Assembly (NCBI GenBank): GCA_947084965.1
Contig: CAMTUG010000001.1
Span: forward strand, 74,166 to 138,165
DNA: 64,000 bases
Reading direction: 5' to 3'
Source: an uncultured Parcubacteria group bacterium
Lineage (GTDB): Bacteria > Patescibacteriota > Patescibacteriia > UBA9934 > CAMTUG01
The stretch's first letter is position 1. Each line of letters opens with the position of its first letter. Below are positions 6,342 to 61,801 of the stretch, piece by piece. The notes under the pieces were generated by a model. It saw nothing but the letters and a program-made list of their open reading frames with translations, had not been told where the DNA came from and searched no databases. Made by a program: the position numbers and the translations under genes.

Positions 6342-9300
6342 ATGGACGAACAGAAACCAAAACGGAACGGGTATCTTCTTCGCCGGGCAGGGGCGACCGT
6401 TTGTCTCCTTTTTGTTTTGTTTGCGGCGGTGCTTCCGTCAGCGGTATCCGCTCAGGTTGTTCAGGTTGTCACTGCTCCAGGTGTGCCAATCGAGACGACA
6501 GAAGATCTAAAAAAGGAGCTCATTGAAAAGCCGTTCCAGGTCGCCTTTTTGACGATCATCTGGAATTTCATGACGTTTATTTCGAATCGCATCGCCTACG
6601 ATGCAGCTGTGGCGATCGCGACGGCCGGTAATGGGGAAGAGCCGTTGATTGAATTGCGCGATCCGATGCGTTATTTAGAGGATCTAGGAAAGGACGTCGT
6701 TGGTGCGGGTATCGATGCCTTAAATCAGTCGCTTGAGGCGGTTAACATCCACTTTGATCTGTGTGCTCCAAAAGCGCCACTGGTTAAACTTTCGCTCCAG
6801 CTTGGTATTCGTTCGGCCTACGACCGCCCGGAACCAGATTGTGATTTTCAAGAGCTGACAGAAAACTGGGAGGCCTTTACGGCATCTACGATCTTTTCCG
6901 CCAGCCCGGACGAGGCGGCACTGTTTCAATTTTCCGCCACGATGAATCCGCGCACGACTGATCTCTCCTCTGCTATTACCCTTCTTGATCAGATTTATAC
7001 CGACGAAGCTCTGACAAAATCAAGTAGTTTTGCTGAGTATCTTGCCAACAACGGGTATAAGAACGTCGTTAATAGCATCACGGGTAATGTAGAGACCCCA
7101 GCTGATCTTGTTGAAAATGCATGGAGCAGGTCGGTTGAAATTGCTATTCCAACAAAGGAAGACCGCATCGCTGGGTTTAACTTTTTCTTAGAGTCTAAGG
7201 ATTTATGGAAACAGCTTGGTGTTTCTGCCTTGAGTACATTTGCCAACACGTTGCTTTCTACATTCACCCAGCGCATTTATAGTGGGATGTTTGACATCGA
7301 CATTCCAGAATCTGATGTATTGGACGTCGGAACGATTACGTTTCGCGGTGGTGTCGATGCGGCCGAATCGCATTTCCGGTCGATGTTTACAGCCAAAATC
7401 ATCAGTTTAGATAACTACAGTGTCATTTCAGAATTTTTGACTTGCCCGGGAACGACGACACGACAGCTAAACAACTGCGTGATGGATAGTGGCTTCGGTA
7501 ACGCTGTCGCTGGGGCTGAGGTTGGTGACCCGTTTACGGTACAAGAAGCGATTGATGAAGGATACATTCATGGCGATTGGCCGCTGATCAGCCAGGACGA
7601 TTCTCGCGACCTGGACCAGAATTGTTATAGTTACGGATATTGTTACGGCAACTTAGTTCGCATGCGCAAAGCGCGGATCATCCCGGTGGGATGGGAGATG
7701 GCCGCATCGATCCAGGCGGCTGGAGATTCAGATACTTTACAAGATGTCATCGATCAGTTTGATGACTGTAATGCTGATAATGAACGGGATCCGAGCCATC
7801 CGTATTGCCACCTAATCGACCCAAATTGGGTTTTGAAATATCCCTCGACGCAATGCCGCGCGAGTGTGCCAGGACAATTAGTTGACAACGACGGCATAAA
7901 ACGCGGAACAGAGTGTGTTGATGCTCCGAGCTGTATTCAAGAAGATGCCGGGGGAGAGTGTGTTGGTGGTTATGGCTACTGTGTGCGTGAGCAGAACAGT
8001 TTCGACTTCCGTGGCACTTCTTGTCCCGAGCAATACGCTACCTGTTTGGCAGTCAGTAATGAAGATGACGAATTGTCGGGGAACTATCTCTTTAATACCA
8101 CAGACCTCGAAGAATGCGATGCGGATTCTGCAGGCTGCCGCTGGTATCAGACGACCAAAGAATCAACAGACGATGTCTTTGACTGGCCGACGATCGATGA
8201 CTTGCCAACGCTTGACGCCGCGGCTGGCACGTATGCTTCTCGTTTTTACTACAACAACGACGTCGAGGAATGTGATTCAGACGACGCTGGTTGTACGCGG
8301 GTGATTGAAAAGACGGACGATGTCACCTTGAACCTCATCCGAAATCCGAGCTTTGAAGATGATGAGGATGCCGACGGTGTGCCGGATTACTGGACGTTCA
8401 CGGGAGCGGGAACGTACGACCTTTCAGGGACGACCTCCGCTTTTGCCAGTGATTCAGTAGCTCCAGGGGCTTCCGGATCATCGGCGATTATTTATCAGAC
8501 CGATCTCCCGCTCCAGCAGGCGACGTTCTACACTCTTTCGTTTTATGCCGAGCAGGCCGATGCGACCAGTAGTGAGACATTAACGGTTTATGCCGTTATA
8601 AATTCAGAGGATGGTTCAGCAGAAGTTGACCTGAGTGGTACGAGTTATGGCGGTGACTGTACGATTGCCGATTTAGATAGCTCTGGAGGCGAGGAAACGA
8701 TCCTCATGAGTGTGACCCCGGCCTCGAACACTTCCGAGCGCTTCAGTTGTACCTTTACCTCACCAACGTTCACGGATGAGGATCTTGGAGTGCGAATCCA
8801 GTTCCTCGACTTCATCGGCGAGGAGATTTATGTCGACGCCGTTCAGCTTGAAGCCGACGAGGATCTTTCGGATTTCGTCGTTGGATACGGCACAACGCTT
8901 GAGCAGTTGAATCCGACGTACTATAAATTACCACCGTCTTACCTGGGCTGTACGGGCGATAGCGACGTGGATCCTGCTGAATGCGCTGATTACGCGCCGG
9001 TCTGTACAGCGCAAGACGTTGGATGTTCCGAATACACTCCGGAAAACGGGGATCCGGTGGTGACCGGTATCGCTGGTGCGCTTGATGAATGTCCGGCGGT
9101 TTGTTCAGGGTATGACACCTATAAGCAAGAACCGACGCGGTACGAACCGGACGGAGATTTCCCGTTGTACTTTATCCCTGACACCGCCATCTCGTGCGGC
9201 GCGCAGTACGTTGGATGTGATGAATTCACCAATTTAAATACCGAAGAGCGCGAATCCTACACCTACTTGCGCGCTTGCCAGACGACGACCCAAACGACCG

Positions 9301-12300
9301 ACGAAGCGACCTACTACACCTGGGAAGGCTCAGATCTCGAAGGGTTCCAGCTCGTCTCTTGGTCGCTGATGCAGAGCGACACCACGGACGCTCCGTGTAC
9401 GACCTGGTCAACAACTTCAAGCGCGATCGAGTGTGCGGATCTTTCCACTGCCGGCACGGACGATGCTTGCGATGAGCACGACGATATTTTTGAGAATCCC
9501 GACTGTCGTGAATTCTACGACGCCGATGGCGACATCTTCTATCGTCTTTGGTCAGAAACGGTGACAGTAACGGATTCGTGCACTCCGTATCGCAAGACGC
9601 AGATCGTCGGTGATGATGCCACGGAACAAGCGAGCAACTGCTCCGGTGCCGGTGGTTATTGGGACGGAACGGTCGGGGAGTGTAATTTTTACGGCTACGC
9701 GGATGAGTCCGACGAGTGCCCAGCCACGGCCAACGGGTGTCGTGAATACACCGGCGGCAATAGCCGCAACTCCTCGGTTGTTTATGAGGATGATGTAGAG
9801 GATGAAGACATCGATGAATATATCGTCAACGCAACGACTACCACGGCCGAGGTCAGCAATGAATCGGTCGCCACAGACGGTCACTCGATTCACGTTGAGA
9901 TGTCGGCCGATGACGGCTATGTGGCGGTCGCATCCGCAACGATGGCCGACTGTTCTGAATCGGACGGCTGTACCGCCGATACTGCGGATGAAGACGCCGA
10001 CGGTTCCACCGCTGATTGTGGCGAATCCGACGGTTGTGATGCAGAAGTCGGCACGCTCGGAGTTTCCTGCACGATTAGCGAGGGGGACGCTACGTGTGGC
10101 GCCTTGACCGGGGAACTGGCAGAAGGAAAAGTGTACATCTTAAAATTCTGGGCGAAGACTACGACCAGCAGCTTAGTCATCACTCCGGTATTTATCGAAC
10201 AGGCAGGGACAGGGGATGAATATCAGTTTGATACAGTGACCCTTTCTCCGATCTGGAAGGAATACACCGTCGGCCCGCTCGACACAACGGATGAATCCGG
10301 TTTCGATGATTCAGCCCTTTTGGCCTTCATGGCCGACAGCGGGGCGGAGTTCTATCTCGACAACATCACCTTGCGACAGACCGAAGAAAACATCACCGTT
10401 ATTAAAGATTCTTGGGAAACCCCAGCGACCTGTGATGAAACAGAGGATGGCGTCAGTTCAGATCAGTATCATCTCGGGTGCCAGGAATATCGCGATCAAG
10501 ATGGCGAAACGGTGTACTTGAAGTCCTTCACGCGATTGTGCGACGAAGATCAGGTCGGTTGTGCGGCGTTCTACGACACCCAATCATCGGATTCCGTCTA
10601 CGGCGCGGTGTACAACATCACCTGTGAAGCGGTCACCTCGGCCGGGATCGGCGGAGCGTGCGAAATCGACGGGGAAGAAGTTTGCGACATGGCTGCAGGG
10701 GAGTCTTCCTGCCAGTTTGACTGGATTGGCGGGGTGCCGCGCGAAGATGATGGAACGCTTAAAGATCTGGATAGCACCGATTATCAGTTAGCTCTAAACG
10801 CGGATGCGGTGGTCGTCCCGCCAGACGAAGTGACCTACTTCGTCGCCAGCGATACGTATGCCTGTGACGAAGGCGCTATGGGCTGTATGGAGGTCGGCGT
10901 GCCGACGTACAACCAAGATCAATCGCAGGTAGCCTCCTGGGAAACGAGCTATCTGTTGAATGTGGTCGATGCGTATGATGATATTTTGTGCAACGTCGAT
11001 ACGCTCTTCTGCGAAGCCTGGGACACGACTCAAAATGGGACGTATTACTTCAAGTATCCGCAGGACAAAACGTGCGAATACCGCACCGGAGTGGTGATCG
11101 ACGGATCAGAGTATTCGGGGTGGTTCCGCACGGACACCGATCAATTCTGCTACGGTTCAGGGACCTGTTCGGATGACGCGACCGTTTCCTGCAGCCTTGA
11201 TGCTGATTGTGCCTCTGCCGATGCAGGAACGTGTGAAATCAACGATGGATCGTACGTTCAAGGCGGCACGTTCTCTGGTGTTTGGAGGAACGGGGATACG
11301 GCGTTCGACGGTTGGGTTGGCACGTGTGACGATGAATACGACCTCTGTTCAGAATTTATCGACACACTCGATGTTGGGGAGAACGGCCTTTACGGAACGG
11401 ACGGAGGTTCGTCCAGCTTCTTCTTGAATAACGATGAACTCGATGAGTCAAACTTGCCAGCGTCAAAGCAGTGTTCGGGCCAAGTGAGTCAGAAACAAGG
11501 GTGTATCCTGTTTAATGACACCCTCGATTCTGAATTGAATTATAATGCTTCAGCAACGTATACGCTGAGTGTCCATGCTAACGAATTCTATTCAGGTACA
11601 ATGACCTACGGACTGGTCGATCCGATTAGCTGCCCAGATTCTGGGGTCGTTGAAACGTTGAGTGGCACGTCCTACGATCTTTGCGCGATGCGTTGTACGT
11701 ACCGCAACGATCTGTTGCATCCTTACGAAGACTATTCAACGACCACGGGAGAGGATTTTTACACTTTTACGACTTCTTGTATCTATGACAGTGACTGCCC
11801 ATTGATTGAATCGGACGGCAGCGATCTTGTTGACGGAACGTGCGAAACAGGAACCTTTACTGGTGCAGGAAGCTCAGGGAGCATTACGGTTCCGACTCTT
11901 GAAGACGATACCAATCGTATCCAAAAAGTGAATCTCGACCGCGACTGCGCCGAGTGGCTTTCGTGTTCATCGCAAACAACAGTTTGGGATGAGTCAGCGA
12001 GCGCCTACAAGACCGTCTGTGATGGTATCGGAATGTGTAATGAATACTCCTCGCTCGGTGAAACAAGTTTCTGCACCAACTGGAACATTGATGCCAGTCC
12101 AACTCTGCTGACGAGTAATCATTACGCTTCGCGCGATATTGGTTGGTACGGATATGAATATGCTGGGTATGCCGTTCCGTATAGTCTGCCGGCGCATCTT
12201 TTGAGTCAAAAGAATGTCAATCCTAGCAAATGGTGTACTTACTCAACAGCAGATGGCAGTGTGTATGATGGCCGCGATTACGGATACGAGACCCCGTTTA

Positions 12301-15300
12301 TTGATTGTTCGGCAGATGATGGTATGTGTGATGATGCGACGGGCTCGACGAGCGCCGTCTGTAGTTCGGCTCCAACGGACTATCGCTTGGTCTACGACGC
12401 TGGAACGTGCGACGAGGAAAACGGTGAAAGTTGTGAAGTTGGTTTCTGTGCCTCAAGCGGCGCATCGTGCGGAACCGACAGTGACTGTGATTCGGGCGAC
12501 ACCTGTGAAACAGGGTATTGTGGATACGCCGCATCATCCGGAACGTGCGAGGTTGATGCAGACTGTACCGACTCAGTGTACAACACCTGTAATAACAATC
12601 TCTGCACTACCTTAACAGCCGAAGCCTGTTCCGTCTCTTCAGAATGTACTAATACGTCACTTGGTACCGCTACTTGTATTGATTCAGCTACATCGATGGA
12701 CGGGATGTGCTTTGAAAACGAGTGTTTGGTTGATGTTTCTGATCGAGATGAAGACGGGAATCTTGATGACTTTGATTACGATCTGGCCGAAGCTCTTGAT
12801 TGTCGAGGGTGGCCAGAAAGTTCCGCTCCGTTCCCAAATGAAGTAGTAACGATCTGGCAAAACGCCGACGGGGCGACCGACGCCACCCCAGATGGTGATG
12901 AAAACGCGATCACGACGCTGTCGACCTTTGAAGATGTCAATTTGTGTGCGGGCGGCGAAGAATGTCTCTGTAACTACGATGTGGTTGAGTATGGCACGGG
13001 GAAAACGTGGTATTACGATCAGGCCTCAGACGCGATCCCGACCTATAAGTGCGTTGGTGGGTTGTATGATGGTGGCGAATGTGATGCCACCGCCGGTGGA
13101 GCGATGGTTATTGATGATGTTATTCAGACAGAATTGTGTTCAGAGGGGTCAGGAGTTTGCACGCGCCTTTCTTCCCAACAAACGATGATTGGGCTTGAGG
13201 GTTACTGCTTAGAGCGTGACACGTCGCTCACCCTAAACGGTCAGACCGGGGAAGCACCGTGTCTGACCTGGCTCCCCGTCGATCGTCCAGCGGGCGCGAC
13301 GGACATTTACGGCAAAGCGACCGAAGCGGGATATCCACTCGAAGACACCTTCTACTGCGGCGACATCGATCTGTACATGGATGTTCCGACTTCGTCGATC
13401 GGTTGTGCCCAGCACGAAACTTCGTCTGGTGGTCAAGATTGTAACTATGTAAGTAGTACGGAAGATCCTTACTGGGGTGACTTGCTCCGCGGGGACGGAA
13501 ACGCCGTTTGTCCGGACGGTATGTTCGCTGTGATCGGCCGCTGTATCGATTCGGATGGTAAAACGGACGGTGATTTTGATGACCCGTATGCCTCCTCGAG
13601 TGGAAATTCAGCCGTAGATACCTGCATGGCGGACGCTGCTGATGATTCAAACGATCATCCCTACTTCTGTGTCCCTGAAGGTTCGGTACATACAGAAGGG
13701 ATCGACGAAGGAGATCTTTGCGACATTCCAGATGACGACCTGCTTAATGACTTCGGAGCTGCCTTAAATGAGGTAAAAGAAAGCGACTGGGATTACGATG
13801 ATGTCTGGGACATTAACGGAACGTGGGGTCAGATGGAGACCGTAGCTTCATCGTTATCACTCGGGAACGATGTCTATAAGATTGAGGCCCAGCCGGATGA
13901 ATTCGATACACTGTACGAGTACTATTCTGATTGTGTATTAGAAGGAGTCGACTACTTATCGACTAAGAATAATCCGTACTTAATCCCGACACCGGATAAC
14001 TTACTTAGCGGTTCGTACTACACCTGTTCAAACAGCAGCGGCCCGAGCCGCGAAGCGGCAGTTTGTGCTGATGGAAACTATGATAATCGTGACCTCGTTT
14101 CGGAAGTGGAGAATAGTTACCACGACCTGACATTTGGCACTGTCGTTTATCCAGGGTGTTCTTCGATTGTCCAGGTCGCTTCGACGACAGAAAACAGAGC
14201 CTGGACCGACCGCGTGCTCTTTGATGGTCGCGCGTATGCGATCGATCAGTTCTCGTCCGCTTCGCTCGCCTTCACGATGGATACGGTGGAAAATCCGTTC
14301 GGTGTCTCGGTATCTCCGACCTATTTGAACGAAGAGATTGATCCGAACCCAGCCCGTCCGCTTAGCTGTCTTGGTGACATTGACGGTGACGGCTATGATG
14401 ACATCTATTTGCCGAACGTGAGTGGATCATGTGGTTCTGGCTCATTGATCTCGGATGGCCTCAACCAGGGCCGCGCTTACGACGACTTTGACGGGGAAAC
14501 GGGAGGGTACATCATGGTTAGCGACAGTGAAAATCTGCGCCCAGATCAGGTTCTCTTCGGCCTGATCTCCCCGAGTACGGCTTGGGAAAACGCCATCTCC
14601 GAAATTTTTGCCTTCGCTAATACCTGGTCGAGGTTTGATCAAGGATTGGACGATGATGACGACTTTGAATCGATCGGGTCGTACAGTACTCTTGCAGAAT
14701 CATCCGGCCTGTGGGACATCACGGACTCTGGGGACAGTAATATCGAAGATGGTAATCCGACTGCGCCTGTTGTGCGTGCGGTCGGTGAAACGTGTGTCGA
14801 TCAGTACTGCCGTGAAGGGGTCGAAGATACCTTCAGCGTTAACGGCCAAGACGACAGCGACTTAACCGGTGATGGCGGCCAATTCTTCGCTGACGTGAAG
14901 TTCTTCGTCGAAGCGAACGCCAACCAGATGCCGATTCGTCGTGTGATCGTTGACTGGCAGGATCAGCGCGATACCATGTCCGGTTCGTTGACCGACGATA
15001 ATTACTACAAGAACCGCCGTGGGTTAAACGACAGCAACAACCATTGGTGCGAGCAGGAAACGAACTGGGGCGAAACCGCCGAAGCCTGTGAACCAAACTA
15101 CTTCAATACCACCAATGTCTACACCTGTTCCATGGCACTCGTGGAAACGCTCCCTGTCTGTTCCACTAATGACTCAGGTAACTTGGAAGAATCTCCATGT
15201 CGTGGTGGTGACTCCGGCTACAGCGAAGATGTCTGTATCTTCCAGCCGCGTGTCCACGTTCGCGACAACTGGGGTTGGTGCACAGGGGTGTGTGGGACGG

Positions 15301-15443
15301 ATGGGGAGAGCTGTTATGATGGGGATGGGGAAATTATGACTAATGATAGTACTGATGAGTGTAATTTAGACTACCCGAATGCAGATATGACAGCATGGGA
15401 TCCCTGGGTCTATTACGAAGGACTGATCATCGTTGAGCCATAG
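6342..15443 (+). CDS. Giant secreted Cys-rich acidic surface protein (3033 aa), function unknown
   Basis: Uninterrupted 9.1 kb ORF; signal peptide; >150 Cys, D/T/S/G-rich; no recognisable catalytic motif. Confidence 0.85.
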   Translation: MDEQKPKRNGYLLRRAGATVCLLFVLFAAVLPSAVSAQVVQVVTAPGVPIETTEDLKKELIEKPFQVAFLTIIWNFMTFISNRIAYDAAVAIATAGNGEEPLIELRDPMRYLEDLGKDVVGAGIDALNQSLEAVNIHFDLCAPKAPLVKLSLQLGIRSAYDRPEPDCDFQELTENWEAFTASTIFSASPDEAALFQFSATMNPRTTDLSSAITLLDQIYTDEALTKSSSFAEYLANNGYKNVVNSITGNVETPADLVENAWSRSVEIAIPTKEDRIAGFNFFLESKDLWKQLGVSALSTFANTLLSTFTQRIYSGMFDIDIPESDVLDVGTITFRGGVDAAESHFRSMFTAKIISLDNYSVISEFLTCPGTTTRQLNNCVMDSGFGNAVAGAEVGDPFTVQEAIDEGYIHGDWPLISQDDSRDLDQNCYSYGYCYGNLVRMRKARIIPVGWEMAASIQAAGDSDTLQDVIDQFDDCNADNERDPSHPYCHLIDPNWVLKYPSTQCRASVPGQLVDNDGIKRGTECVDAPSCIQEDAGGECVGGYGYCVREQNSFDFRGTSCPEQYATCLAVSNEDDELSGNYLFNTTDLEECDADSAGCRWYQTTKESTDDVFDWPTIDDLPTLDAAAGTYASRFYYNNDVEECDSDDAGCTRVIEKTDDVTLNLIRNPSFEDDEDADGVPDYWTFTGAGTYDLSGTTSAFASDSVAPGASGSSAIIYQTDLPLQQATFYTLSFYAEQADATSSETLTVYAVINSEDGSAEVDLSGTSYGGDCTIADLDSSGGEETILMSVTPASNTSERFSCTFTSPTFTDEDLGVRIQFLDFIGEEIYVDAVQLEADEDLSDFVVGYGTTLEQLNPTYYKLPPSYLGCTGDSDVDPAECADYAPVCTAQDVGCSEYTPENGDPVVTGIAGALDECPAVCSGYDTYKQEPTRYEPDGDFPLYFIPDTAISCGAQYVGCDEFTNLNTEERESYTYLRACQTTTQTTDEATYYTWEGSDLEGFQLVSWSLMQSDTTDAPCTTWSTTSSAIECADLSTAGTDDACDEHDDIFENPDCREFYDADGDIFYRLWSETVTVTDSCTPYRKTQIVGDDATEQASNCSGAGGYWDGTVGECNFYGYADESDECPATANGCREYTGGNSRNSSVVYEDDVEDEDIDEYIVNATTTTAEVSNESVATDGHSIHVEMSADDGYVAVASATMADCSESDGCTADTADEDADGSTADCGESDGCDAEVGTLGVSCTISEGDATCGALTGELAEGKVYILKFWAKTTTSSLVITPVFIEQAGTGDEYQFDTVTLSPIWKEYTVGPLDTTDESGFDDSALLAFMADSGAEFYLDNITLRQTEENITVIKDSWETPATCDETEDGVSSDQYHLGCQEYRDQDGETVYLKSFTRLCDEDQVGCAAFYDTQSSDSVYGAVYNITCEAVTSAGIGGACEIDGEEVCDMAAGESSCQFDWIGGVPREDDGTLKDLDSTDYQLALNADAVVVPPDEVTYFVASDTYACDEGAMGCMEVGVPTYNQDQSQVASWETSYLLNVVDAYDDILCNVDTLFCEAWDTTQNGTYYFKYPQDKTCEYRTGVVIDGSEYSGWFRTDTDQFCYGSGTCSDDATVSCSLDADCASADAGTCEINDGSYVQGGTFSGVWRNGDTAFDGWVGTCDDEYDLCSEFIDTLDVGENGLYGTDGGSSSFFLNNDELDESNLPASKQCSGQVSQKQGCILFNDTLDSELNYNASATYTLSVHANEFYSGTMTYGLVDPISCPDSGVVETLSGTSYDLCAMRCTYRNDLLHPYEDYSTTTGEDFYTFTTSCIYDSDCPLIESDGSDLVDGTCETGTFTGAGSSGSITVPTLEDDTNRIQKVNLDRDCAEWLSCSSQTTVWDESASAYKTVCDGIGMCNEYSSLGETSFCTNWNIDASPTLLTSNHYASRDIGWYGYEYAGYAVPYSLPAHLLSQKNVNPSKWCTYSTADGSVYDGRDYGYETPFIDCSADDGMCDDATGSTSAVCSSAPTDYRLVYDAGTCDEENGESCEVGFCASSGASCGTDSDCDSGDTCETGYCGYAASSGTCEVDADCTDSVYNTCNNNLCTTLTAEACSVSSECTNTSLGTATCIDSATSMDGMCFENECLVDVSDRDEDGNLDDFDYDLAEALDCRGWPESSAPFPNEVVTIWQNADGATDATPDGDENAITTLSTFEDVNLCAGGEECLCNYDVVEYGTGKTWYYDQASDAIPTYKCVGGLYDGGECDATAGGAMVIDDVIQTELCSEGSGVCTRLSSQQTMIGLEGYCLERDTSLTLNGQTGEAPCLTWLPVDRPAGATDIYGKATEAGYPLEDTFYCGDIDLYMDVPTSSIGCAQHETSSGGQDCNYVSSTEDPYWGDLLRGDGNAVCPDGMFAVIGRCIDSDGKTDGDFDDPYASSSGNSAVDTCMADAADDSNDHPYFCVPEGSVHTEGIDEGDLCDIPDDDLLNDFGAALNEVKESDWDYDDVWDINGTWGQMETVASSLSLGNDVYKIEAQPDEFDTLYEYYSDCVLEGVDYLSTKNNPYLIPTPDNLLSGSYYTCSNSSGPSREAAVCADGNYDNRDLVSEVENSYHDLTFGTVVYPGCSSIVQVASTTENRAWTDRVLFDGRAYAIDQFSSASLAFTMDTVENPFGVSVSPTYLNEEIDPNPARPLSCLGDIDGDGYDDIYLPNVSGSCGSGSLISDGLNQGRAYDDFDGETGGYIMVSDSENLRPDQVLFGLISPSTAWENAISEIFAFANTWSRFDQGLDDDDDFESIGSYSTLAESSGLWDITDSGDSNIEDGNPTAPVVRAVGETCVDQYCREGVEDTFSVNGQDDSDLTGDGGQFFADVKFFVEANANQMPIRRVIVDWQDQRDTMSGSLTDDNYYKNRRGLNDSNNHWCEQETNWGETAEACEPNYFNTTNVYTCSMALVETLPVCSTNDSGNLEESPCRGGDSGYSEDVCIFQPRVHVRDNWGWCTGVCGTDGESCYDGDGEIMTNDSTDECNLDYPNADMTAWDPWVYYEGLIIVEP

Positions 15444-16675: not shown

Positions 16676-17284
16676 TCAGCGGCGGCAGGTCACGGTCCCG
16701 TATTGGGCACCGGTGTTCCCGTAGACGTTGAGGGTGATCACTGAGCCGTCCAGGGACACGATGCCGTCGTAGTCCTCGGAGGAGAAGTGGTGGCCGTCCA
16801 GCATGATCTCGGTGTCCATCCCTGACTCGACATGACAGTCATCAGAGACCTCGATGTAGTTCTCCCAGCTTGGGTACTCGGTTCCGTCGTACGTGTTCTG
16901 ACATACCCACTCATCCGTCAGGTCCAGACAGAGCTCGGTGGACAGTTCGGCGGTCTCGCCGACGTCGATCGGTGCCTGACCGAAGTACGTCGCGCCCTCG
17001 TCGCTGGTGAAGGCGAAGGTCACGGTGTAGTCCTGGGGGTCGAGGCCGTCGATGGTGTCTGGGGTGGTGCCGGTGATGTCGGTGCCAGCGATCGCGTAGG
17101 TGACGCCTTCCACTTCCTGGAGGTCTTCGATGACCTCGGTCATGTCATCGTTCCAGTCGGCGAAGTTGATCGTGGCGGTGATGGTCACCGTCATGTTGTT
17201 GATCGCGGGCGGGGTGCTCGTGTCCTTGCTCGTCGAGGTGGTGTCGGTGCAGGCGGCGAGGAGGATGAGGGTGATGAGGTGCAT
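16676..17284 (-). CDS. Lipoprotein, acidic, GC-rich (paralog of 15587-16243)
   Basis: Start MHLITLILLAACTD (lipobox LAAC); shared C...W.C...C...TC.R framework with paralog. Confidence 0.7.
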   Translation of the reverse strand: MHLITLILLAACTDTTSTSKDTSTPPAINNMTVTITATINFADWNDDMTEVIEDLQEVEGVTYAIAGTDITGTTPDTIDGLDPQDYTVTFAFTSDEGATYFGQAPIDVGETAELSTELCLDLTDEWVCQNTYDGTEYPSWENYIEVSDDCHVESGMDTEIMLDGHHFSSEDYDGIVSLDGSVITLNVYGNTGAQYGTVTCRR

Positions 17285-17411
17285 GGGGTCTCCAGGGAAC
17301 GAATGTGTACGATCAGGACTCTCGAAGCTAAACGGTTTGTTTAAAGCGCTCAGGTTTAAGGTCCCGATCATCGGACAGACAACCACAAATAACGCGACGC
17401 GTCAATGTCTC

Positions 17412-20286: not shown

Positions 20287-20372
20287 CAACAACATCAATC
20301 GACAGGGGGCGGATGGCTACTCCATCCGCCCACCTTCGCTTACGAAACTGAACTAGTTTGAGCGTCAAAACC

Positions 20373-20395
20373 TGAGGTCACAATTTGTGACCTCA
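20373..20395. repeat. Perfect 23-nt palindrome tgaggtcacaatttgtgacctca (operator-like)
   Basis: Self-complementary; 29 nt upstream of ORF6N gene. Confidence 0.7.
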
Positions 20396-20423
20396 AGTTA
20401 CGCAGTCAGAATGATTCTAAAAT

Positions 20424-20927
20424 ATGGAAACGAATATTCCCATCGAACGTATCTATCAAAATATTTATCTCATTCGGGGAAAAAAGGTTATGTTAGATTC
20501 TGATCTGGCTATCCTTTATGGTGTAGAGACAAGATCCCTAAACCAAGCCGTGCGTCGCAATATCGAACGTTTTCCGGAAGACTTTATGTTTGAACTAAGC
20601 TCAGTTGAGCTAAAATCTTTGAGATCACAAATTGTGATCTCAAACGGTCGAGGTGGAGCCAGATATGGCCACATGGTTTTTTCTGAATACGGAATCGCCA
20701 TGTTATCGAGTGTTTTGCGAAGTGAAAAGGCGGTGCAGGTCAATATTCAGATCATTCGGGCATTTATTGCTCTGCGTGACTTTGTGCTTAGTAATGATGA
20801 TTTGCAGATGAAAATCGAAGCACTTGAATTGCGTTATGACGGCGAGTTGCGTTCAGTTTTCGATGCTCTGAATCGTCTTCTGACTGAAGAGGAGAAGCCG
20901 GAACCAGAAATCGGCTTCAAAACTTGA
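20424..20927 (+). CDS. ORF6N/KilA-N domain protein (phage antirepressor-like DNA-binding)
   Basis: KVMLDSDLAILYGVETRSLNQAVRRNIERFPEDFMFEL signature. Confidence 0.7.
   Translation: METNIPIERIYQNIYLIRGKKVMLDSDLAILYGVETRSLNQAVRRNIERFPEDFMFELSSVELKSLRSQIVISNGRGGARYGHMVFSEYGIAMLSSVLRSEKAVQVNIQIIRAFIALRDFVLSNDDLQMKIEALELRYDGELRSVFDALNRLLTEEEKPEPEIGFKT
20619..20643. repeat. Perfect 25-nt palindrome ttgagatcacaaattgtgatctcaa inside ORF6N gene
   Basis: Identical to copy at 20925-20949. Confidence 0.7.
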
Positions 20928-20949
20928 GATCACAAATTGTGATCTCAAA
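20925..20949. repeat. Perfect 25-nt palindrome overlapping ORF6N stop codon
   Basis: ttgagatcacaaattgtgatctcaa. Confidence 0.7.
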
Positions 20950-32064: not shown

Positions 32065-32155
32065 GGAGAGGTACCCAAGTGGTTGAAGGGGACGGTTTGC
32101 TAAATCGTTAGGGGTCGCAAGGCCCGCGAGGGTTCGAATCCCTCCCTCTCCGCCA
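32065..32155 (+). tRNA. tRNA-Ser (anticodon GCU), CCA encoded
   Basis: Cloverleaf with long variable arm; anticodon loop ttGCTaa. Confidence 0.85.
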
Positions 32156-32175
32156 TGCAAATTTTGTGCTATGAT

Positions 32176-32265
32176 GGTGGGGTGCTCGAGTGGTTTAAGA
32201 GAACAGTCTTGAAAACTGTCGTGGGTGAAAGCTCACCGTGAGTTCGAATCTCACCCCCACCGCCA
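32176..32265 (+). tRNA. tRNA-Ser (anticodon UGA), CCA encoded; preceded by TGcTATGAT -10
   Basis: Acceptor ggtgggg/ccccacc, anticodon loop ctTGAaa, long variable arm. Confidence 0.85.
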
Positions 32266-32267
32266 TT

Positions 32268-32762
32268 ATGGAAACAACGACAACGCCTTCCTACGGAAAA
32301 TCAATTATCTCCTGGGACACTTGGGACGGAGCCAAACATGATCGTTCGGTTTGGTGGTACGTCCTCACCGGAGCGATCGGTGTGGCCTTACTCCTTTACG
32401 CTATTTTGACCGCCAGTTTTCCGTTTGCGGTGATCATCCTGATGGTCGGGATTATCACCCTCATGTCCCATTTGCGTGATCCGGAACAGATCACCGTTCA
32501 TATTACGACGAGTGGAGTGTTGGTAGGTCGACACTTTTATGGCTGGAAGGAGATCAAGAATTTTTCGATCGTTTATAACCCCCCGCGCGTCAAATTGCTC
32601 TACCTCGATTTTCAAAGTCGGTGGATCCCACTAACCTCTGTTCCCCTCGATGACATGGATCCAAATGACGTCCGTGACGCCTTGAAACCGTACGCGGTTG
32701 AAAATCTTGAGCGGGACGAGGAATCATTGACAGACTTCCTCAACCGGGTGTATAAACTCTAA
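32268..32762 (+). CDS. Small membrane protein (2 TM), unknown function
   Basis: Starts METTTTPSY 3 nt after tRNA; two hydrophobic helices. Confidence 0.55.
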   Translation: METTTTPSYGKSIISWDTWDGAKHDRSVWWYVLTGAIGVALLLYAILTASFPFAVIILMVGIITLMSHLRDPEQITVHITTSGVLVGRHFYGWKEIKNFSIVYNPPRVKLLYLDFQSRWIPLTSVPLDDMDPNDVRDALKPYAVENLERDEESLTDFLNRVYKL

Positions 32763-32902
32763 GCTTAGCGAGTGAAACCGCTCCAAACGTTCAGTTACAA
32801 GGCGCGGGGAGGCGACGAGGAGACGTCCAAAACGTACGTTGACGAAGTCGTCGGGGCCCCGCAACGCAGTAAATGAATGTTTGGTGCGGTTTCACATTAC
32901 AA

Positions 32903-32979
32903 GCGCCCGTAGCTCAGTTGGATAGAGCGTCAGGTTGCGGACCTGAAGGTCGCATGTTCGAGTCATGCCGGGCGCACCA
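32903..32979 (+). tRNA. tRNA-Arg, anticodon reads GCG (unusual), CCA encoded
   Basis: Acceptor gcgcccg/cgggcgc, D-loop with A20, T-loop TTCGAGT, anticodon loop ttGCGga. Confidence 0.75.
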
Positions 32980-36663: not shown

Positions 36664-38094
36664 TTATTCGCAGGTAATCTGACCTGTATCCGAGTTTGTT
36701 TCGCAGACGCGCTCTTCGGTCGAGGATTCTCCCGCTCCTACCGTCGAGAGATCGGTGTAATTTTCGTCTAAACAGGCGATCAGCGGCGTACGGGAGCTGC
36801 CGTAGAAGAGGGAACCGTGGGCGTGTGGCCCGGAGGTATTGCCGGACGCTTTCCAGTTTTGGCAGTCACAGTCCGTGTTGCCGCCATATGGGCTGCCACA
36901 TTCTGTTCCTTGGTCCGTACACCAACCGCGCTGAGACATCGACCATCCTTGTGGAACGTCTTCGGCCGAGGTAGCGCAACAGCGGCCACCGATGTAACCG
37001 ATGACATCTCCGGCCTTTACGTTCGGAGGATTTCCTTCCAGATTCGTTGCGAACGCTTTAACGTGGCAGATCGTGAATCGTCCGCCGCCTGTTAGATTGA
37101 CGTCAATATAGTTTCCACAACGATTTGATCCATCGCCAGCGACAAATTCGACTGTCCCATCACCTGGTGCAACGACTTCGCTCCCCCACGCAGCGGGAAA
37201 ATCCAAACCAGCGGTCATCTCCTCCCAATCATAGTCGGCATCGCGAAAATGGTAGTTGCACGAGAATGGTTGGCCGTTCGGGGAGTAGAGCGGCTGGGAG
37301 AGTGGACAGGAATCTGACGCTTGAGCCAAATCAAAGGCTCCCTCACAATCCGATGCTGATCCGCCCCCGCTTTCTCCTTCAAGCCCTGAAGTGTCGAGGT
37401 CGAGCGTTACCGCTTCAACTTCGACCAGCTGAATTGATTTGAGCTCTGTTAATTCGGGGTTGACTACGCGAAGGATGACGTACGCTCCCATAATCAGGAT
37501 CAATCCGATCGCCGCGTTCTGAATGCGTTTCTTCGCTGCGTCGGCATGGCCAACCGAGGAGCCGATCATATATTGCACCCCGCCGATCATGATCATGACG
37601 ATCGCTACGATCGCGGATGCTCCCAGCAAGTAGATGTAAACGCCGTTAATGTACTCTGCCAGAAAATTGATCTGCAATTTTCCATCGCGACTCAAAACAT
37701 CCCCAAAGGAAAGCCCGGGAATATCGATCGCGAGGTCCGGGGTAAGGTACGTGTGGCGAATCGCTTCGGCGGCCTGCGAGGTGATCTCTTCACTACTGAA
37801 GACGTACGTGCTGTCAAAAATTTTATAGATGCTTCCGGGGTTCTCCGACTGTTCAATCTCGGCCCAAATCCTACACGTCTCATCACAAGATGCTTCATCC
37901 GTGATTCCTTCATCCGTCATGTCAATCTTCTGGATGTTACTGGTTACGCATGTTCCACTTCTTCCGCTGATTTCGACATCATAGCTGCACTCTTTGACGG
38001 TGTATTCACACGTACAGCTTCCGGGAACCTGTGGCTCCTGAGCGAGGACCGATTGAGGAAGGAAGAGGAGTGACAATACGATGAAGAATCGCAT
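36664..38094 (-). CDS. Secreted/membrane M23 family metallopeptidase
   Basis: Signal peptide; GNYIDVNLTGGGRFTICHV...GDVIGYIGG...GPHAHG motifs. Confidence 0.65.
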   Translation of the reverse strand: MRFFIVLSLLFLPQSVLAQEPQVPGSCTCEYTVKECSYDVEISGRSGTCVTSNIQKIDMTDEGITDEASCDETCRIWAEIEQSENPGSIYKIFDSTYVFSSEEITSQAAEAIRHTYLTPDLAIDIPGLSFGDVLSRDGKLQINFLAEYINGVYIYLLGASAIVAIVMIMIGGVQYMIGSSVGHADAAKKRIQNAAIGLILIMGAYVILRVVNPELTELKSIQLVEVEAVTLDLDTSGLEGESGGGSASDCEGAFDLAQASDSCPLSQPLYSPNGQPFSCNYHFRDADYDWEEMTAGLDFPAAWGSEVVAPGDGTVEFVAGDGSNRCGNYIDVNLTGGGRFTICHVKAFATNLEGNPPNVKAGDVIGYIGGRCCATSAEDVPQGWSMSQRGWCTDQGTECGSPYGGNTDCDCQNWKASGNTSGPHAHGSLFYGSSRTPLIACLDENYTDLSTVGAGESSTEERVCETNSDTGQITCE

Positions 38095-38096
38095 AT

Positions 38097-38756
38097 CTAA
38101 CGAGCACTGATCAGTGAACGAACGATCGCTTCGAGGTCGGCAAGGGACGTCGCGCCGGTAAAGCGTTCTTCCCCGATAAAGAGCGTGGGAGTTGATTTGA
38201 GATCAAGGGCGAGACCTTCGTTAAACGTTTTCTTGACGATCGGGAGCGGTTCCTGGCTGGCGTAGCATTCTTGGAACGCTCGGGTATCTAATTGTAAGTC
38301 CTGAGCGATCGCCAGATAGGTCTGATCGTTTTGTTGGGATTGACGCAAAAAGAGTTCATCGTGGTACGGCCAGAATGCATCCTGTGCTCCTGCGCACCGT
38401 GCTGCGAGAGCGGCTGGAGTTGCCTGTGTGTGCAACGATTCATTGGGAAAATCTTTCCAAACGACACGAACATCTTCTGGAAATTTTTGTTGGAGCGAAG
38501 CGAGCGTTGAGGCCATCTTGGCGCATGGCTCGCAGGCAAAATCGCCGAACTCCACGATCGTCACCGCTGCTTCTGCCGGCCCTTTGCTCGGATCGATGAA
38601 GGTGATCGTCGGTTTGGAGAGCATGATTCGTTCCGGCTCGGTGATCTGAATCTTCTCTTCATCGCGGGACGCAAAGGCAAAGAAGATCATCGTCACCACG
38701 AGAAAAAATCCGAGTACGATCAGGATATGCCATCGATAGACATGAGCGGTTGCCAT
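38097..38756 (-). CDS. DsbA-like thiol:disulfide oxidoreductase
   Basis: N-terminal TM, thioredoxin CEPC active site. Confidence 0.75.
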   Translation of the reverse strand: MATAHVYRWHILIVLGFFLVVTMIFFAFASRDEEKIQITEPERIMLSKPTITFIDPSKGPAEAAVTIVEFGDFACEPCAKMASTLASLQQKFPEDVRVVWKDFPNESLHTQATPAALAARCAGAQDAFWPYHDELFLRQSQQNDQTYLAIAQDLQLDTRAFQECYASQEPLPIVKKTFNEGLALDLKSTPTLFIGEERFTGATSLADLEAIVRSLISAR

Positions 38757-38757
38757 A

Positions 38758-39996
38758 TTATTTCAATCGCATTTGTTGCAAGCGGCCGTCTTCATCTGTG
38801 TAGTACAAATAACGACCGTCTGCCGAAACAGCCAAGTTGGACATCTGGGTCCGGTCTTCTGGCTCGCCAATCAGCCGAACCTTTCCGCTATCGACGTCGA
38901 TGCGGTAGATGGAATCTTGGATCGTGTTTATGGCTGGTTGGAGCCCGGCATTTTCTGGTAAGTATTGGGGCACGGCGCAGTAGATCGTTGAAGCGTCGGC
39001 AAAGGTGCATTTTTCAACCCAGGTGTTGAGACCGAGCGAGCGACGGTCGTCTCCCATCGTTTTTGGAGTACCGTCGACGATCCACAGCAGCGGCCGATAA
39101 CTGCTTGTTGGACCGGTGACGTCATAGAGAATTCGGGCGCCATCCGGTGACCAGATCGCATGAAACGCTAACCCTTCGACTACCAGTCCTTTGAAATTTT
39201 CGTCGTTCTTGCCAATGGGGAGGATCATGTTGCGGCCGAATCCGCTTTGCGAACCTCCGGTGTTAGAAAAGGCGACGACCTGATCGTTTGGCGACCAGGC
39301 AACATCGACGAGGTCGGCGTTGTCGCCAAGAGCGGCGATGACCTGTGTCTTGCTTCCGTCCGTTGAAGTGACGACCAGCGCTCGCGCATTCGGGTCATTG
39401 CCGATCGATTTGGCGATGACCTCTGTGCCTGTACTTGAGAAATCAAACTCTTCCCAGTGGGCGGGGAGGGTGGTTTGGTCTTCGCTTTCAAAGTCGTAAA
39501 TGATGTTTGATCCGTCCGGGAATTCAATGACCACCGTATCGGCCGCTTCGTCCAAGACGATCGTTTCGGCGTCGGGGAACGTTGCGTCTGAGAGAGGGCT
39601 TATTTCGCCGTCACTATTGACGGTATAGAATTTTCCGTCATCCGGGTCGTAATAGTTGACGCCCGAGCCATCGCCCGCGAGGGTTGCGGCCATGATTTCA
39701 CTTGCGGTTAACCGTTCCGTTTGGGTAATGCCGCCATCGGCCACCTCCGCCACGGGAAGATCGGTCGTTCCCGTTGTAGGTGAGGTCGGTCTTGTGGGGC
39801 TCCCTTCGCCCGCACCTGGGAGTCCGCTCGTGCCGCCTGGTTCTTCCTCAACCGACGGTGGTGTCGTAATGACCTGGGACGGGGATCGGAAAAAGACGGC
39901 GTAAATGGCATAAGCCACGACGACAATGATTCCAAGGAAACCGGCGATAAATAAAATACGCTTAAGTCGTTCTGACATATAAGCGTATTTTATCAC
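38758..39996 (-). CDS. Membrane-anchored beta-propeller protein (TolB C-terminal/PD40-like repeats)
   Basis: N-terminal TM, Pro/Thr/Gly linker, repeated SPDG/SADG..Y motifs. Confidence 0.5.
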   Translation of the reverse strand: MIKYAYMSERLKRILFIAGFLGIIVVVAYAIYAVFFRSPSQVITTPPSVEEEPGGTSGLPGAGEGSPTRPTSPTTGTTDLPVAEVADGGITQTERLTASEIMAATLAGDGSGVNYYDPDDGKFYTVNSDGEISPLSDATFPDAETIVLDEAADTVVIEFPDGSNIIYDFESEDQTTLPAHWEEFDFSSTGTEVIAKSIGNDPNARALVVTSTDGSKTQVIAALGDNADLVDVAWSPNDQVVAFSNTGGSQSGFGRNMILPIGKNDENFKGLVVEGLAFHAIWSPDGARILYDVTGPTSSYRPLLWIVDGTPKTMGDDRRSLGLNTWVEKCTFADASTIYCAVPQYLPENAGLQPAINTIQDSIYRIDVDSGKVRLIGEPEDRTQMSNLAVSADGRYLYYTDEDGRLQQMRLK

Positions 39997-60842: not shown

Positions 60843-61801
60843 TGATCCCCAAGATTCTCGCCATCGTCGGACCGACCGCGTCCGGCAAATCAGATCTCGC
60901 CATCACCTTCGCCAAACAATTGGGCGGCGAGGTGATTTGCGTTGATTCACGCACGGTCTATCGCGGGATGACGATCGGGACTGCCAAGCCGATCGGACAA
61001 AAAGAATGGAGTGGAGGAGAAGTGATCTGGAAGATTGGGGACGCGGCGCTGATCGTCGACGGTGTGCGGCACTGGGGGATCGACCTGGTTGATCCGAACG
61101 TAGAGTACTCGATCGCAGACTTTAAAAAATACGCCGAAGAAAAGATCGAAGAGATTCTCCATCGGGGGAATCTCCCGATTTTGGTCGGTGGCACCGCGCT
61201 TTGGATGAATGCAATCACGCAGAACCTTGATCTGCCAGAAGTTCCACCTGATCCGACATTACGTGCAGAGCTTGAAACGCAAACAGCAGAAGCACTGTAT
61301 CAACAACTTCTCAAGCTCGATCCAGGAAGTGAGGCGTTTATCGATCCGTTCAACAAACGCCGTCTAATTCGTGCACTTGAAGTTTGTATCAAAACGGGCA
61401 AGCCGTTTTCCGAGCTTCGTCGGGCAGGGGAGTTGAAGTATGACGTGACGACGATCGGCATCGAGATCGATCGCGACGAGCTGCGTAGACGGATTGACGC
61501 ACGCGTCGATCAGATGATTGCACATGGCCTGATCGACGAAGTGCGTTACTTGAAAGATAAATTTGGTTGTGATGTGCCGGCAATGAGTGGAATTGGCTAT
61601 CGTCAGATCTGTTTTTTTCTCGAAGGCCGCGCCAACTTAGAAGCGGCGATTGCCGATACAAAAGCTGACACCTGGCAATTTGCCAAGCGTCAGCTGACCT
61701 GGTGGAAATCTCGTACGGACATTCACTGGGTTACTGGAGTTTTGACGCCAGAATATTTTTTGCAGCTCCGGGATCAGCTTGACCGTCCGTCTCTTTCATA
61801 A
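60842..61801 (+). CDS. miaA: tRNA dimethylallyltransferase
   Basis: P-loop GPTASGKS; TAATG overlap with thrS. Confidence 0.85.
   Translation: MIPKILAIVGPTASGKSDLAITFAKQLGGEVICVDSRTVYRGMTIGTAKPIGQKEWSGGEVIWKIGDAALIVDGVRHWGIDLVDPNVEYSIADFKKYAEEKIEEILHRGNLPILVGGTALWMNAITQNLDLPEVPPDPTLRAELETQTAEALYQQLLKLDPGSEAFIDPFNKRRLIRALEVCIKTGKPFSELRRAGELKYDVTTIGIEIDRDELRRRIDARVDQMIAHGLIDEVRYLKDKFGCDVPAMSGIGYRQICFFLEGRANLEAAIADTKADTWQFAKRQLTWWKSRTDIHWVTGVLTPEYFLQLRDQLDRPSLS

Follow-up and report, generated by a model that had tools for sequence, protein, structure and literature searches.

Results and Discussion

An ORF6N gene bracketed by palindromes

Within the window, by which we mean the whole 64-kb stretch of DNA from an uncultured Parcubacteria group bacterium analysed here, lies a gene for a 167-residue protein with an ORF6N domain, and three near-identical palindromes (centres 20384, 20631 and 20936) flank this gene and sit inside it. 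The features concerned are the following.

20373-20395, unstranded: upstream site, TGAGGTCACAATTTGTGACCTCA, with 11-nt arms TGAGGTCACAA-T-TTGTGACCTCA around a central T at 20384
20424-20927, + strand: ORF6N-domain gene, 167 aa (Pfam PF10543)
20496-20561, + strand: predicted helix-turn-helix (HTH), residues 25-46 (DLAILYGVETRSLNQAVRRN), from the AlphaFold2 (AF2) model and mutual information (MI)
20618-20644, unstranded: internal site, with 13-nt arms TTTGAGATCACAA-A-TTGTGATCTCAAA, centre 20631
20724-20885, + strand: long C-terminal helices, residues 101-154, from the AF2 secondary structure
20924-20948, unstranded: 3′ site, a 25-mer identical to the internal site, centre 20936

In each of the three sites the arms match perfectly and leave one base unpaired in the centre. 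An initial annotation had reported them together with the ORF6N assignment, and its positions, perfect arms and domain match are all confirmed, the last with E = 2.7e-32 and 111.3 bits (cutoff 27.8) over residues 13-97. It had also placed a variant site 29 nt upstream of the gene; the variant is there, though we count the distance as 28 nt from the end of the site, or 40 nt from its centre, to the ORF6N ATG (20424). The internal 25-mer, TTGAGATCACAAATTGTGATCTCAA, occupies 20619-20643, with arms reaching 13 nt at 20618-20644, and codes for L65-R-S-Q-I-V-I-S72. The 3′ copy overlaps the TGA stop codon (20925-20927), and its centre precedes the start codon of the following gene (ATG at 21007) by 71 nt. 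When up to three mismatches are allowed, the 25-mer occurs at these three places only in the window, compared to 0.00 expected from 100 shuffles, and the 13-nt core TCACAAWTTGTGA is found at the same three places only, compared to 0.11 expected. The idea that the flanking copies are remnants of decayed ORF6N genes was rejected, since similarity stops at the palindrome edge; tblastn of the flanks gives matches at E = 2.4-2.5, and these are confined to the motif.

The palindrome is retained while its codons change

More than 8000 homologues of the window protein are detectable, and out of these we compared the best 80 loci from a species-level genome collection. These loci are 48-60% identical and come from Patescibacteria, Omnitrophota, Planctomycetota, Acidobacteriota, Pseudomonadota, Bacteroidota, Nitrospirota and others. 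In alignments, the window protein shares with its homologues the motifs RFPxDFMF and LRSQ[IF]V[TI]S, and the latter, which is encoded by the internal palindrome, is the most conserved motif of the ORF6N family.

When homologous codons are read, the palindrome is seen to be retained although the encoded amino acids change. For instance, TCA CAA WTT GTG A, which gives Ser..Val, has counterparts in TCG CAA WTT GCG A, giving Ser..Ala, and TGC CAA WTT GGC A, giving Cys..Gly; further arm pairs are TTC..GGA (Phe..Gly), TAC..GGT (Tyr..Gly) and TTG..GCA (Leu..Ala). A similar picture emerges for the outer pairs, where AGG goes with (A)CC-T, AGA with (A)TC-T, TTG with TCA-A, TGG with TCC-A and CTA with TTA-G, and the unpaired central base W yields either Ile (ATT) or Phe (TTT). 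The family consensus is a site of 27 bp, YTTGAGGTCACAA-W-TTGTGACCTCAAR. The initial annotation overlooked that the internal copy is a family-wide feature kept by compensatory nucleotide changes.

In 127 unique genes, drawn from both genomes and viral contigs, Watson-Crick complementarity between the arms holds in 80-98% for each of arm positions 2-13; it is about 50% for positions 14-15 and at background level farther out. In an ungapped alignment of 126 non-identical homologues, scored over 12 arm pairs with 500 shuffles, standard pairs make up 93.2% of cells compared to 76.1% for shuffled partners and 25-44% for partners slid by 1-3 columns. Cells with a double change number 252, compared to 72 in shuffles, compensatory change is found in 11 of the 12 arm pairs, and none of the 500 shuffles reached the observed values. 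The codons themselves are extremely biased: in the motif Leu is TTG in 84% of cases (17% elsewhere in the same genes), Arg is AGG or AGA in 96% (28%), Ser is TCA in 77% (13%), Gln is CAA in 93% (47%) and Val is GTG in 97% (27%), in genes whose GC content at third codon positions (GC3) spans 0.21-0.86.

Compensatory covariation of this strength is also what would be seen if the palindrome formed a hairpin in RNA, or in single-stranded or cruciform DNA, and were selected for pairing alone. Such a hairpin might serve processing or stability, might terminate or attenuate transcription, or might be a signal for recombination or replication that is recognised by its structure. Folded as single-stranded DNA, the three window copies do give -9.9 to -10.9 kcal/mol (z = -5 to -6.6), non-coding copies are each near-perfect palindromes even when unlike the internal copy of their own locus, and several viral copies without an ORF6N gene lie between an A-run and a T-run, in the manner of a bidirectional terminator (L083-L087). 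However, the 103 non-standard cells of the total 1512 include about 18 G.T compared to about 39 A.C, and thus show none of the wobble tolerance of RNA helices. The identity of the bases is conserved besides their pairing, and a purely structural model leaves unexplained that HTH residues predict the bases, as described below. In addition, Rfam gave no match, no T-run accompanies the window copies on the sense strand, and no recombinase or HUH nuclease is conserved near the ORF6N loci examined. We consider it unlikely that the palindrome is a hairpin in any of these senses. Two special cases were rejected: a sense-RNA hairpin, given the Rfam result, the lack of a G.U preference and the coupling to the HTH, and, for the window copies, an intrinsic terminator, as the plus strand shows the pattern at no copy and the minus strand shows it at the internal copy alone.

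A few homologues have unusual architectures. The ORF6N protein of a Bacteroides ovatus plasmid (NZ_CP081918.1, gene at 16795-17346; L316:4986-5537) contains the motif twice (..CLRSQIATLEKGADDETNLRSQTVTSRWGG..), with a full palindrome at the second motif copy only (centre L316:5232), in what looks like a small internal duplication around the site. Two homologues of 282 aa (P0002 and P0003) have two ORF6N domains per polypeptide, as fused tandem copies, and in another (P0035) an excisionase-type HTH_17/MerR HTH is fused to ORF6N.

Residues of the predicted recognition helix follow the bases of the site

The AF2 model of the window protein, with a mean predicted local distance difference test score (pLDDT) of 74, consists of two short strands, an HTH (helices 25-32 and 36-45), more alpha/beta elements, and long C-terminal helices at residues 101-154 that are presumed to be a dimerisation coiled coil. 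The predicted recognition helix, residues 36-45, bears Arg37, Ser38 and Gln41; the HTH stretch is modelled with moderate confidence (pLDDT 82-88), and an A-x3-G-V pattern is present in its sequence. The PDB contains no sequence homologue of the protein, and Foldseek returned weak matches, all of them to DNA-binding proteins of winged-helix type, namely the Ski/Dachshund DHD, the MerR family, RacA and BldC.

The column of the protein that best accounts for half-site positions 5-4 is residue 41 (MI 1.47 bits, z = 44), which outscores even residues 71 and 68, themselves encoded by the palindrome. Residue 38 comes next (z = 23), followed by 42 and 37, and the other columns not encoded by the palindrome, including the intervening residues 43-66, have z of about 5 or less. 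Half-site positions 8-7 are best accounted for, among columns that the palindrome does not encode, by residue 37. An almost deterministic rule relates residue to base:

TCACAA: Gln41 in 69 of 69 genes
TCGCAA: Glu41 in 19 of 19 genes; Arg38 in 21 of 21 CG-class genes
TGCCAA: Arg41 in 14 of 14
TTCCAA: Lys41 in 8 of 8; Asn38 in 7
Hybrid TTC..GCA: Arg41 in 6 of 7
G at position 7 in both arms: Lys37 in 52 of 58
A at position 7 in both arms: Arg37 in 27 of 43, the remainder Gly, Phe, Ser or Ile

It recurs in an independent set of 95 metagenome genes, where G7/G7 goes with Lys37 in 55 of 58 and A7/A7 with Arg37 in 20 of 24 (P = 1e-14), and where TCACAA goes with Gln41 in 80 of 86. Altogether the predicted recognition helix and the palindrome change together in more than 200 relatives. 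In the window, the internal half-site, GATCACAA, is of the cognate type for Arg37/Gln41, and the upstream half-site, GGTCACAA, has positions 4-5 of the Gln41 type and, at position 7, a G (Lys37 type). By the same rule a protein with Lys-Arg-Glu at 37/38/41 is predicted to prefer GGTCGCAA.

As the coupled positions could be near each other in the fold, one might ask whether the effect arises within the protein, with residues 67-72 packing on helix 37-41 and the palindrome a by-product of codon bias or shared ancestry. The coupling nevertheless survives where the encoded residues are the same. Among genes with identical Arg67 and Thr72 (ACC/ACT), AGG goes with Lys37 in 46 of 46, whereas AGA goes with Arg37 in 7 of 10 and with Lys in 1 of 10 (residues other than Lys in 9 of 10; Fisher P = 1.3e-9). 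Similarly, among genes that share Phe68 and Gly71, Lys41 accompanies GGA in 8 of 8 and Arg41 accompanies GGC in 6 of 7 (P = 1.6e-4). Because it persists when a synonymous base alone differs, the coupling is to the nucleotides and not to the residues that they encode. The synonymous codon choice in one arm also depends on the other arm, and non-coding copies share the consensus, so that an origin in protein packing seems to us very improbable. Nor is the coupling due to clades: the site classes lie scattered over a neighbour-joining tree made from the remainder of the protein, with 45 parsimony changes compared to 48.5 for shuffled labels. This scatter reflects either many independent co-switches or recombination of a linked block comprising the HTH and the site.

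The initial annotation had taken the palindromes for operators of the dimeric-repressor type. The covariation of residues 37, 38 and 41 with the bases, synonymous sites included, supports this view and points to the ORF6N protein itself as the most likely binder.

Copies outside the gene and restriction to ORF6N loci

We applied a generic detector (a CA..TG core with T6..A6 and at least 10 of 12 pairs) to 1.6 Mb of loci. It identified 124 distinct sites inside ORF6N genes, 195-235 nt past the start, together with 20 upstream sites centred 18-111 nt from the ORF6N start and 5-6 downstream sites 8-81 nt past the stop, both with the same consensus. Three sites lie elsewhere in the protein-selected loci, and none was found in the shuffled 1.6 Mb. 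At some loci there are two or three upstream sites 34-56 nt apart, and sites directly after the stop are also present at L065, L209, L307 and L315. The last of these, on a Legionella pneumophila plasmid (NZ_CP048619.1, gene at 38318-39214), has the internal site and a second site 18 nt past the stop (L315:6181 and 6894), a layout that we call the same as that of the window. It encodes a 298-aa ORF6N-domain protein with an extra C-terminal domain and, as the organism is culturable, is a candidate experimental system. A different palindrome in the window also passed the detector, at 61666-61692 (TGACACCTGGCAATTTGCCAAGCGTCA; 10 of 12 arm pairs and the same CAA-W-TTG centre); no ORF6N gene is near it and it fits no recognised class.

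Metagenomes were scanned by the DNA pattern TTGAGRTCACAAWTTGTGAYCTCAA, with no protein reference, which yielded at least 120 stretches with at least 133 exact matches. Among the 133 matches listed, 92 coincide with the motif within ORF6N genes, 20 are upstream of such genes and 4 downstream, another 4 adjoin gene fragments, and 13 have no ORF6N in the DNA stretch examined. ORF6N genes thus contain or adjoin 120 of these 133 (about 90%), and the palindrome is no common repeat unrelated to the gene, the one outcome that the initial annotation had named as speaking against it. ORF6N fragments are present at some other loci (L072, L203, L273 and L311).

The 13 matches with no ORF6N include genuine solo sites between genes, that of L218 among them. 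Solo intergenic 25-mers with no ORF6N gene nearby were seen in metagenomes at L200:572-596, L232:6278-6302, L263:10109-10133, L306:823-847, L285, L295, L308 and L218:524-548. The L218 site follows a TATAAT box by 13 nt, and 44 nt farther on an unrelated gene for a membrane protein begins, a layout that looks as if ORF6N proteins regulate other genes in trans. In viral contigs we found 25 stretches with the exact 21-mer, 13 of which also have an ORF6N gene. The remaining stretches contain non-coding copies in 8 distinct contexts, several being the terminator-like ones between an A-run and a T-run. Examples of GAGGTCACAAWTTGTGACCTC in non-coding viral DNA with no ORF6N in the stretch are L083:5600-5620, L084:727-747, L085:6191-6211, L086:5416-5436, L087:1845-1865 and L088:1613-1633, and such copies may be ORF6N targets in phages, terminators, or both.

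Genomic context

The window is chromosomal in character, with genes for GroEL, a release factor, KsgA, an M23 lipoprotein, VirB4-like and ComF-like proteins, RecG, RadA and ClpC, and the locus resembling a type IV secretion system (T4SS) looks chromosomal as well. For the description of the ORF6N protein as antirepressor-like, which the initial annotation had offered, we found no phage or immunity context among these neighbours and nothing else in its favour. Nor do we retain its suggestion of a boundary remnant of a mobile element: no integrase was present among the 21 window open reading frames (ORFs) scanned, no att site was found, the window's only tRNAs are three at 32065-32979, and the neighbours include housekeeping genes. 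Nonetheless, among 635 stretches of 500 nt in the window, that of the ORF6N gene has the lowest GC content (0.419 compared to a median of 0.532, with 0.663 in its upstream neighbour), and because of this the gene and its flanking sites are probably a recent horizontal acquisition.

ORF6N neighbourhoods differ between loci, the ORF6N gene itself being the only constant one. Examples include an Uhrbacteria chromosome, among housekeeping genes, a Cas1/Cas2 defence island, a Bacteroides integrase/conjugative-transposon region and a Legionella conjugative plasmid. No conserved partner gene (toxin, restriction-modification system or recombinase) was found at the ORF6N loci compared.

We considered whether the flanking palindromes are att-like sites of a mobile cassette of a single gene, moved by a recombinase of the host or acting in trans, with the solo palindromes left behind as scars or serving as landing pads. 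Sites bracket the gene at L315 as they do in the window, where it is also the strongest compositional outlier, and the family occurs across phyla at 50-60% identity with no conserved neighbours. Solo intergenic palindromes do exist (L200, L232, L263, L285, L295, L306 and L308), and tandem arrays and truncated copies occur. Yet most ORF6N genes lack flanking sites, and where present these vary in distance and number and are often upstream alone. A single unpaired central base is not a known layout of tyrosine- or serine-recombinase core sites, no pair of an empty and a filled site came to light, though none was sought, and a cassette leaves the code between HTH and bases unexplained. We therefore regard this explanation as quite unlikely.

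A probable regulator with its proposed operator inside its own gene

To judge from the family-wide sequence evidence, the palindrome is very probably the ORF6N protein's own binding site. The overall reading that we favour, and believe to be probably correct, is that of a two-fold-symmetric HTH protein that has its cognate operator inside its own coding sequence and that likely acts in negative autoregulation. What the sequences show is the palindromes, how these are conserved and covary across the family, their confinement to ORF6N loci and the coupling of residue to base; physical binding and dimerisation, like the sign and mechanism of regulation, are what we infer here. The ORF6N protein, probably as a dimer, would bind the 27-bp palindrome, one copy of which would be built into codons 65-73, and the LRSQ[IF]V[TI]S “protein motif” would as a result be largely a conserved DNA site. 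Residues 37, 38 and 41 would read positions 8-4 of each half-site, and with a switch in specificity both arms of the intragenic site would switch along. With Arg37, Ser38 and Gln41, the window protein should find its exact predicted cognate at the internal and 3′ sites and bind there; the 5′ site would be a near-cognate one, differing at position 7 alone in both arms. Negative autoregulation might then combine promoter-proximal occlusion at the 5′ site with a roadblock or loop via the internal and 3′ sites. Since the centre of the 3′ site is so near to the start of the downstream T4SS-like gene (a 926-aa membrane protein, ATG 21007), an influence on that gene is conceivable.

Several observations weigh against this reading. 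The HTH and the site are about 90 nt apart and were possibly inherited as a linked block. Flanking sites are present at only about one sixth of ORF6N genes, and in the protein-selected loci their class equals that of the adjacent gene in 14 of 26 cases, compared to 10.9 when shuffled (P = 0.07). The symmetry, near-perfect at almost all 12 positions, exceeds that of most operators, and hairpin-templated (quasi-palindrome) correction may contribute to it. The AF2 model is of moderate quality overall, with a low-confidence loop at residues 70-83, and the best Foldseek match, the Ski/Dachshund DHD, is a weak one (probability 0.97, E = 0.07). Finally, no sigma-70-like promoter was recognised in the window by a consensus scan, though this is unsurprising if the host belongs to the candidate phyla.

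The class comparison gives no support to the proposal that flanking sites are always cognate to the adjacent gene. So weak a match implies that many of them would be bound by another paralogue, which suggests cross-regulation among paralogues and not simple autoregulation everywhere.

At some loci a single ORF6N gene has beside it a mixed-class array of two or three sites, of Gln41, Glu41 and Arg41 types (L198:1153-1324, L204:3059-3103 and L244:5790-5837, and more of the same sort at L287:400-477, L051:1091-1135 and L276:1185-1249), which again suggests that paralogues regulate one another. Elsewhere 2-4 ORF6N paralogues lie in tandem (L015:3814-6108, L066:1068-2474, L071:4558-6156, L079:5001-6474 and L187:5583-6543); some of these are cut to the N-terminal domain, and their internal palindromes are of different predicted classes.

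A variant to which we give a small chance is that ORF6N is a self-recognising element of a single gene, which binds its own coding DNA in a way that favours its own retention or horizontal spread and does more than adjust its level. It might do so by marking or protecting the incoming gene, by nucleating recombination at the palindromes, or by excluding paralogues of other classes. This would explain the spread across phyla with no conserved neighbours, the compositional outlier, the mixed-class arrays, the tandem paralogues and the solo palindromes of genomes and phages.

Relation to known systems

The window protein is a clear member by sequence of Pfam ORF6N (PF10543), which belongs to the KilA-N/Bro-N/Rha superfamily of DNA-binding domains of phages and mobile elements; its relatives on Bacteroides and Legionella plasmids are annotated just as “ORF6N domain-containing protein”. 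In the searchable literature, where mentions of the family are incidental, we found no binding site, specificity rule or regulatory role for it, and nothing relevant on ORF6N or KilA-N in combination with a palindrome, inverted repeat or operator.

Autoregulated HTH repressors with operators in transcribed or coding DNA are well known, for instance lac O2 in lacZ, gal OI in galE and the purR operators past the purR start. ORF6N resembles the lac, gal and purR repressors in its proposed two-fold-symmetric operators, in having several sites per promoter or gene and in the expected roadblock or looping. Unlike theirs, its operator would lie within the coding sequence of the regulator itself, in the same codons across a large family, where it would dictate the most conserved peptide motif and co-evolve with a recognition helix encoded about 90 nt upstream. 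In the lac repressor, positions 1, 2 and 6 of the recognition helix set operator specificity, and pairings of Gln with A, Arg or Lys with G and Glu with C at helix positions of about 2, 3 and 6 are those expected of classical HTH-DNA recognition. Specificity in ORF6N would likewise reside in helix residues (37, 38 and 41/42) with these conventional pairings, the difference being that the lac rules come from mutagenesis and those described here from natural covariation of a regulator with the site in its own gene.

The controller (C) proteins of restriction-modification systems are small HTH dimers that bind palindromic C-boxes by their own gene, the module travelling with its sites in cis. ORF6N is similar in its palindromic boxes by its own gene, its probable horizontal travel and the distinct predicted specificities among relatives. 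However, C-boxes are upstream and not intragenic, and C proteins have an Xre-type HTH and accompany restriction-modification genes, whereas ORF6N has no conserved partner. The MerR family, which is among the weak Foldseek matches, has palindromic targets and, behind an N-terminal (winged) HTH, a long helix for dimerisation, to which the predicted HTH and presumed coiled coil of ORF6N would correspond. It differs in that the window protein has no MerR Pfam match, the structural similarity is slight (Foldseek E = 0.45-1.9, TM about 0.2), and ORF6N shows no sign of promoter-spacer distortion or of an effector domain.

Regulator-operator pairs and intragenic auxiliary operators are thus already known in kind. 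What appears to be new, in that we found no description in the searchable literature and no solved relative, is a binding site and specificity code for the ORF6N family, an operator fixed in the regulator's own coding sequence across a huge family, and the shaping of a domain's signature motif by an operator that co-evolves with the recognition helix about 90 nt away. A large uncharacterised family, spread over plasmids, conjugative elements, phages and candidate-phyla genomes, is thereby given a concrete and testable function, with a proposed sequence-specific DNA binder, a 27-bp site and a code from residue to base. A “conserved protein motif” in Pfam can, on this evidence, largely be a DNA operator whose palindrome limits the allowed amino acids, which calls for caution when inferences are drawn from motifs. 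The classes, of which positions 4-5 define at least four and position 7 defines two, would constitute natural orthogonal repressor-operator pairs that are usable in synthetic biology. As regulator and operator lie within the same 150 nt, the family also offers an unusually clean natural system for the co-evolution of specificity and target.

Other features of the window

A GC-rich stem-loop with a 10-bp stem and no T-run (GGGCGGATGG ctact CCATCCGCCC; 20307-20331) lies 21 nt past the stop of the M23 lipoprotein gene, of which it is probably the terminator or stabiliser, and marks the upstream edge of the low-GC segment containing the ORF6N gene. Upstream of the lipoprotein block, 6342-15443 (+ strand) is a single ORF of 3033 aa. 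On the opposite strand, the ORF at 36664-38094 (-) has both a T4SS pilin domain (PF18895) and an M23 peptidase domain, and is a second M23 protein in the T4SS-like neighbourhood.

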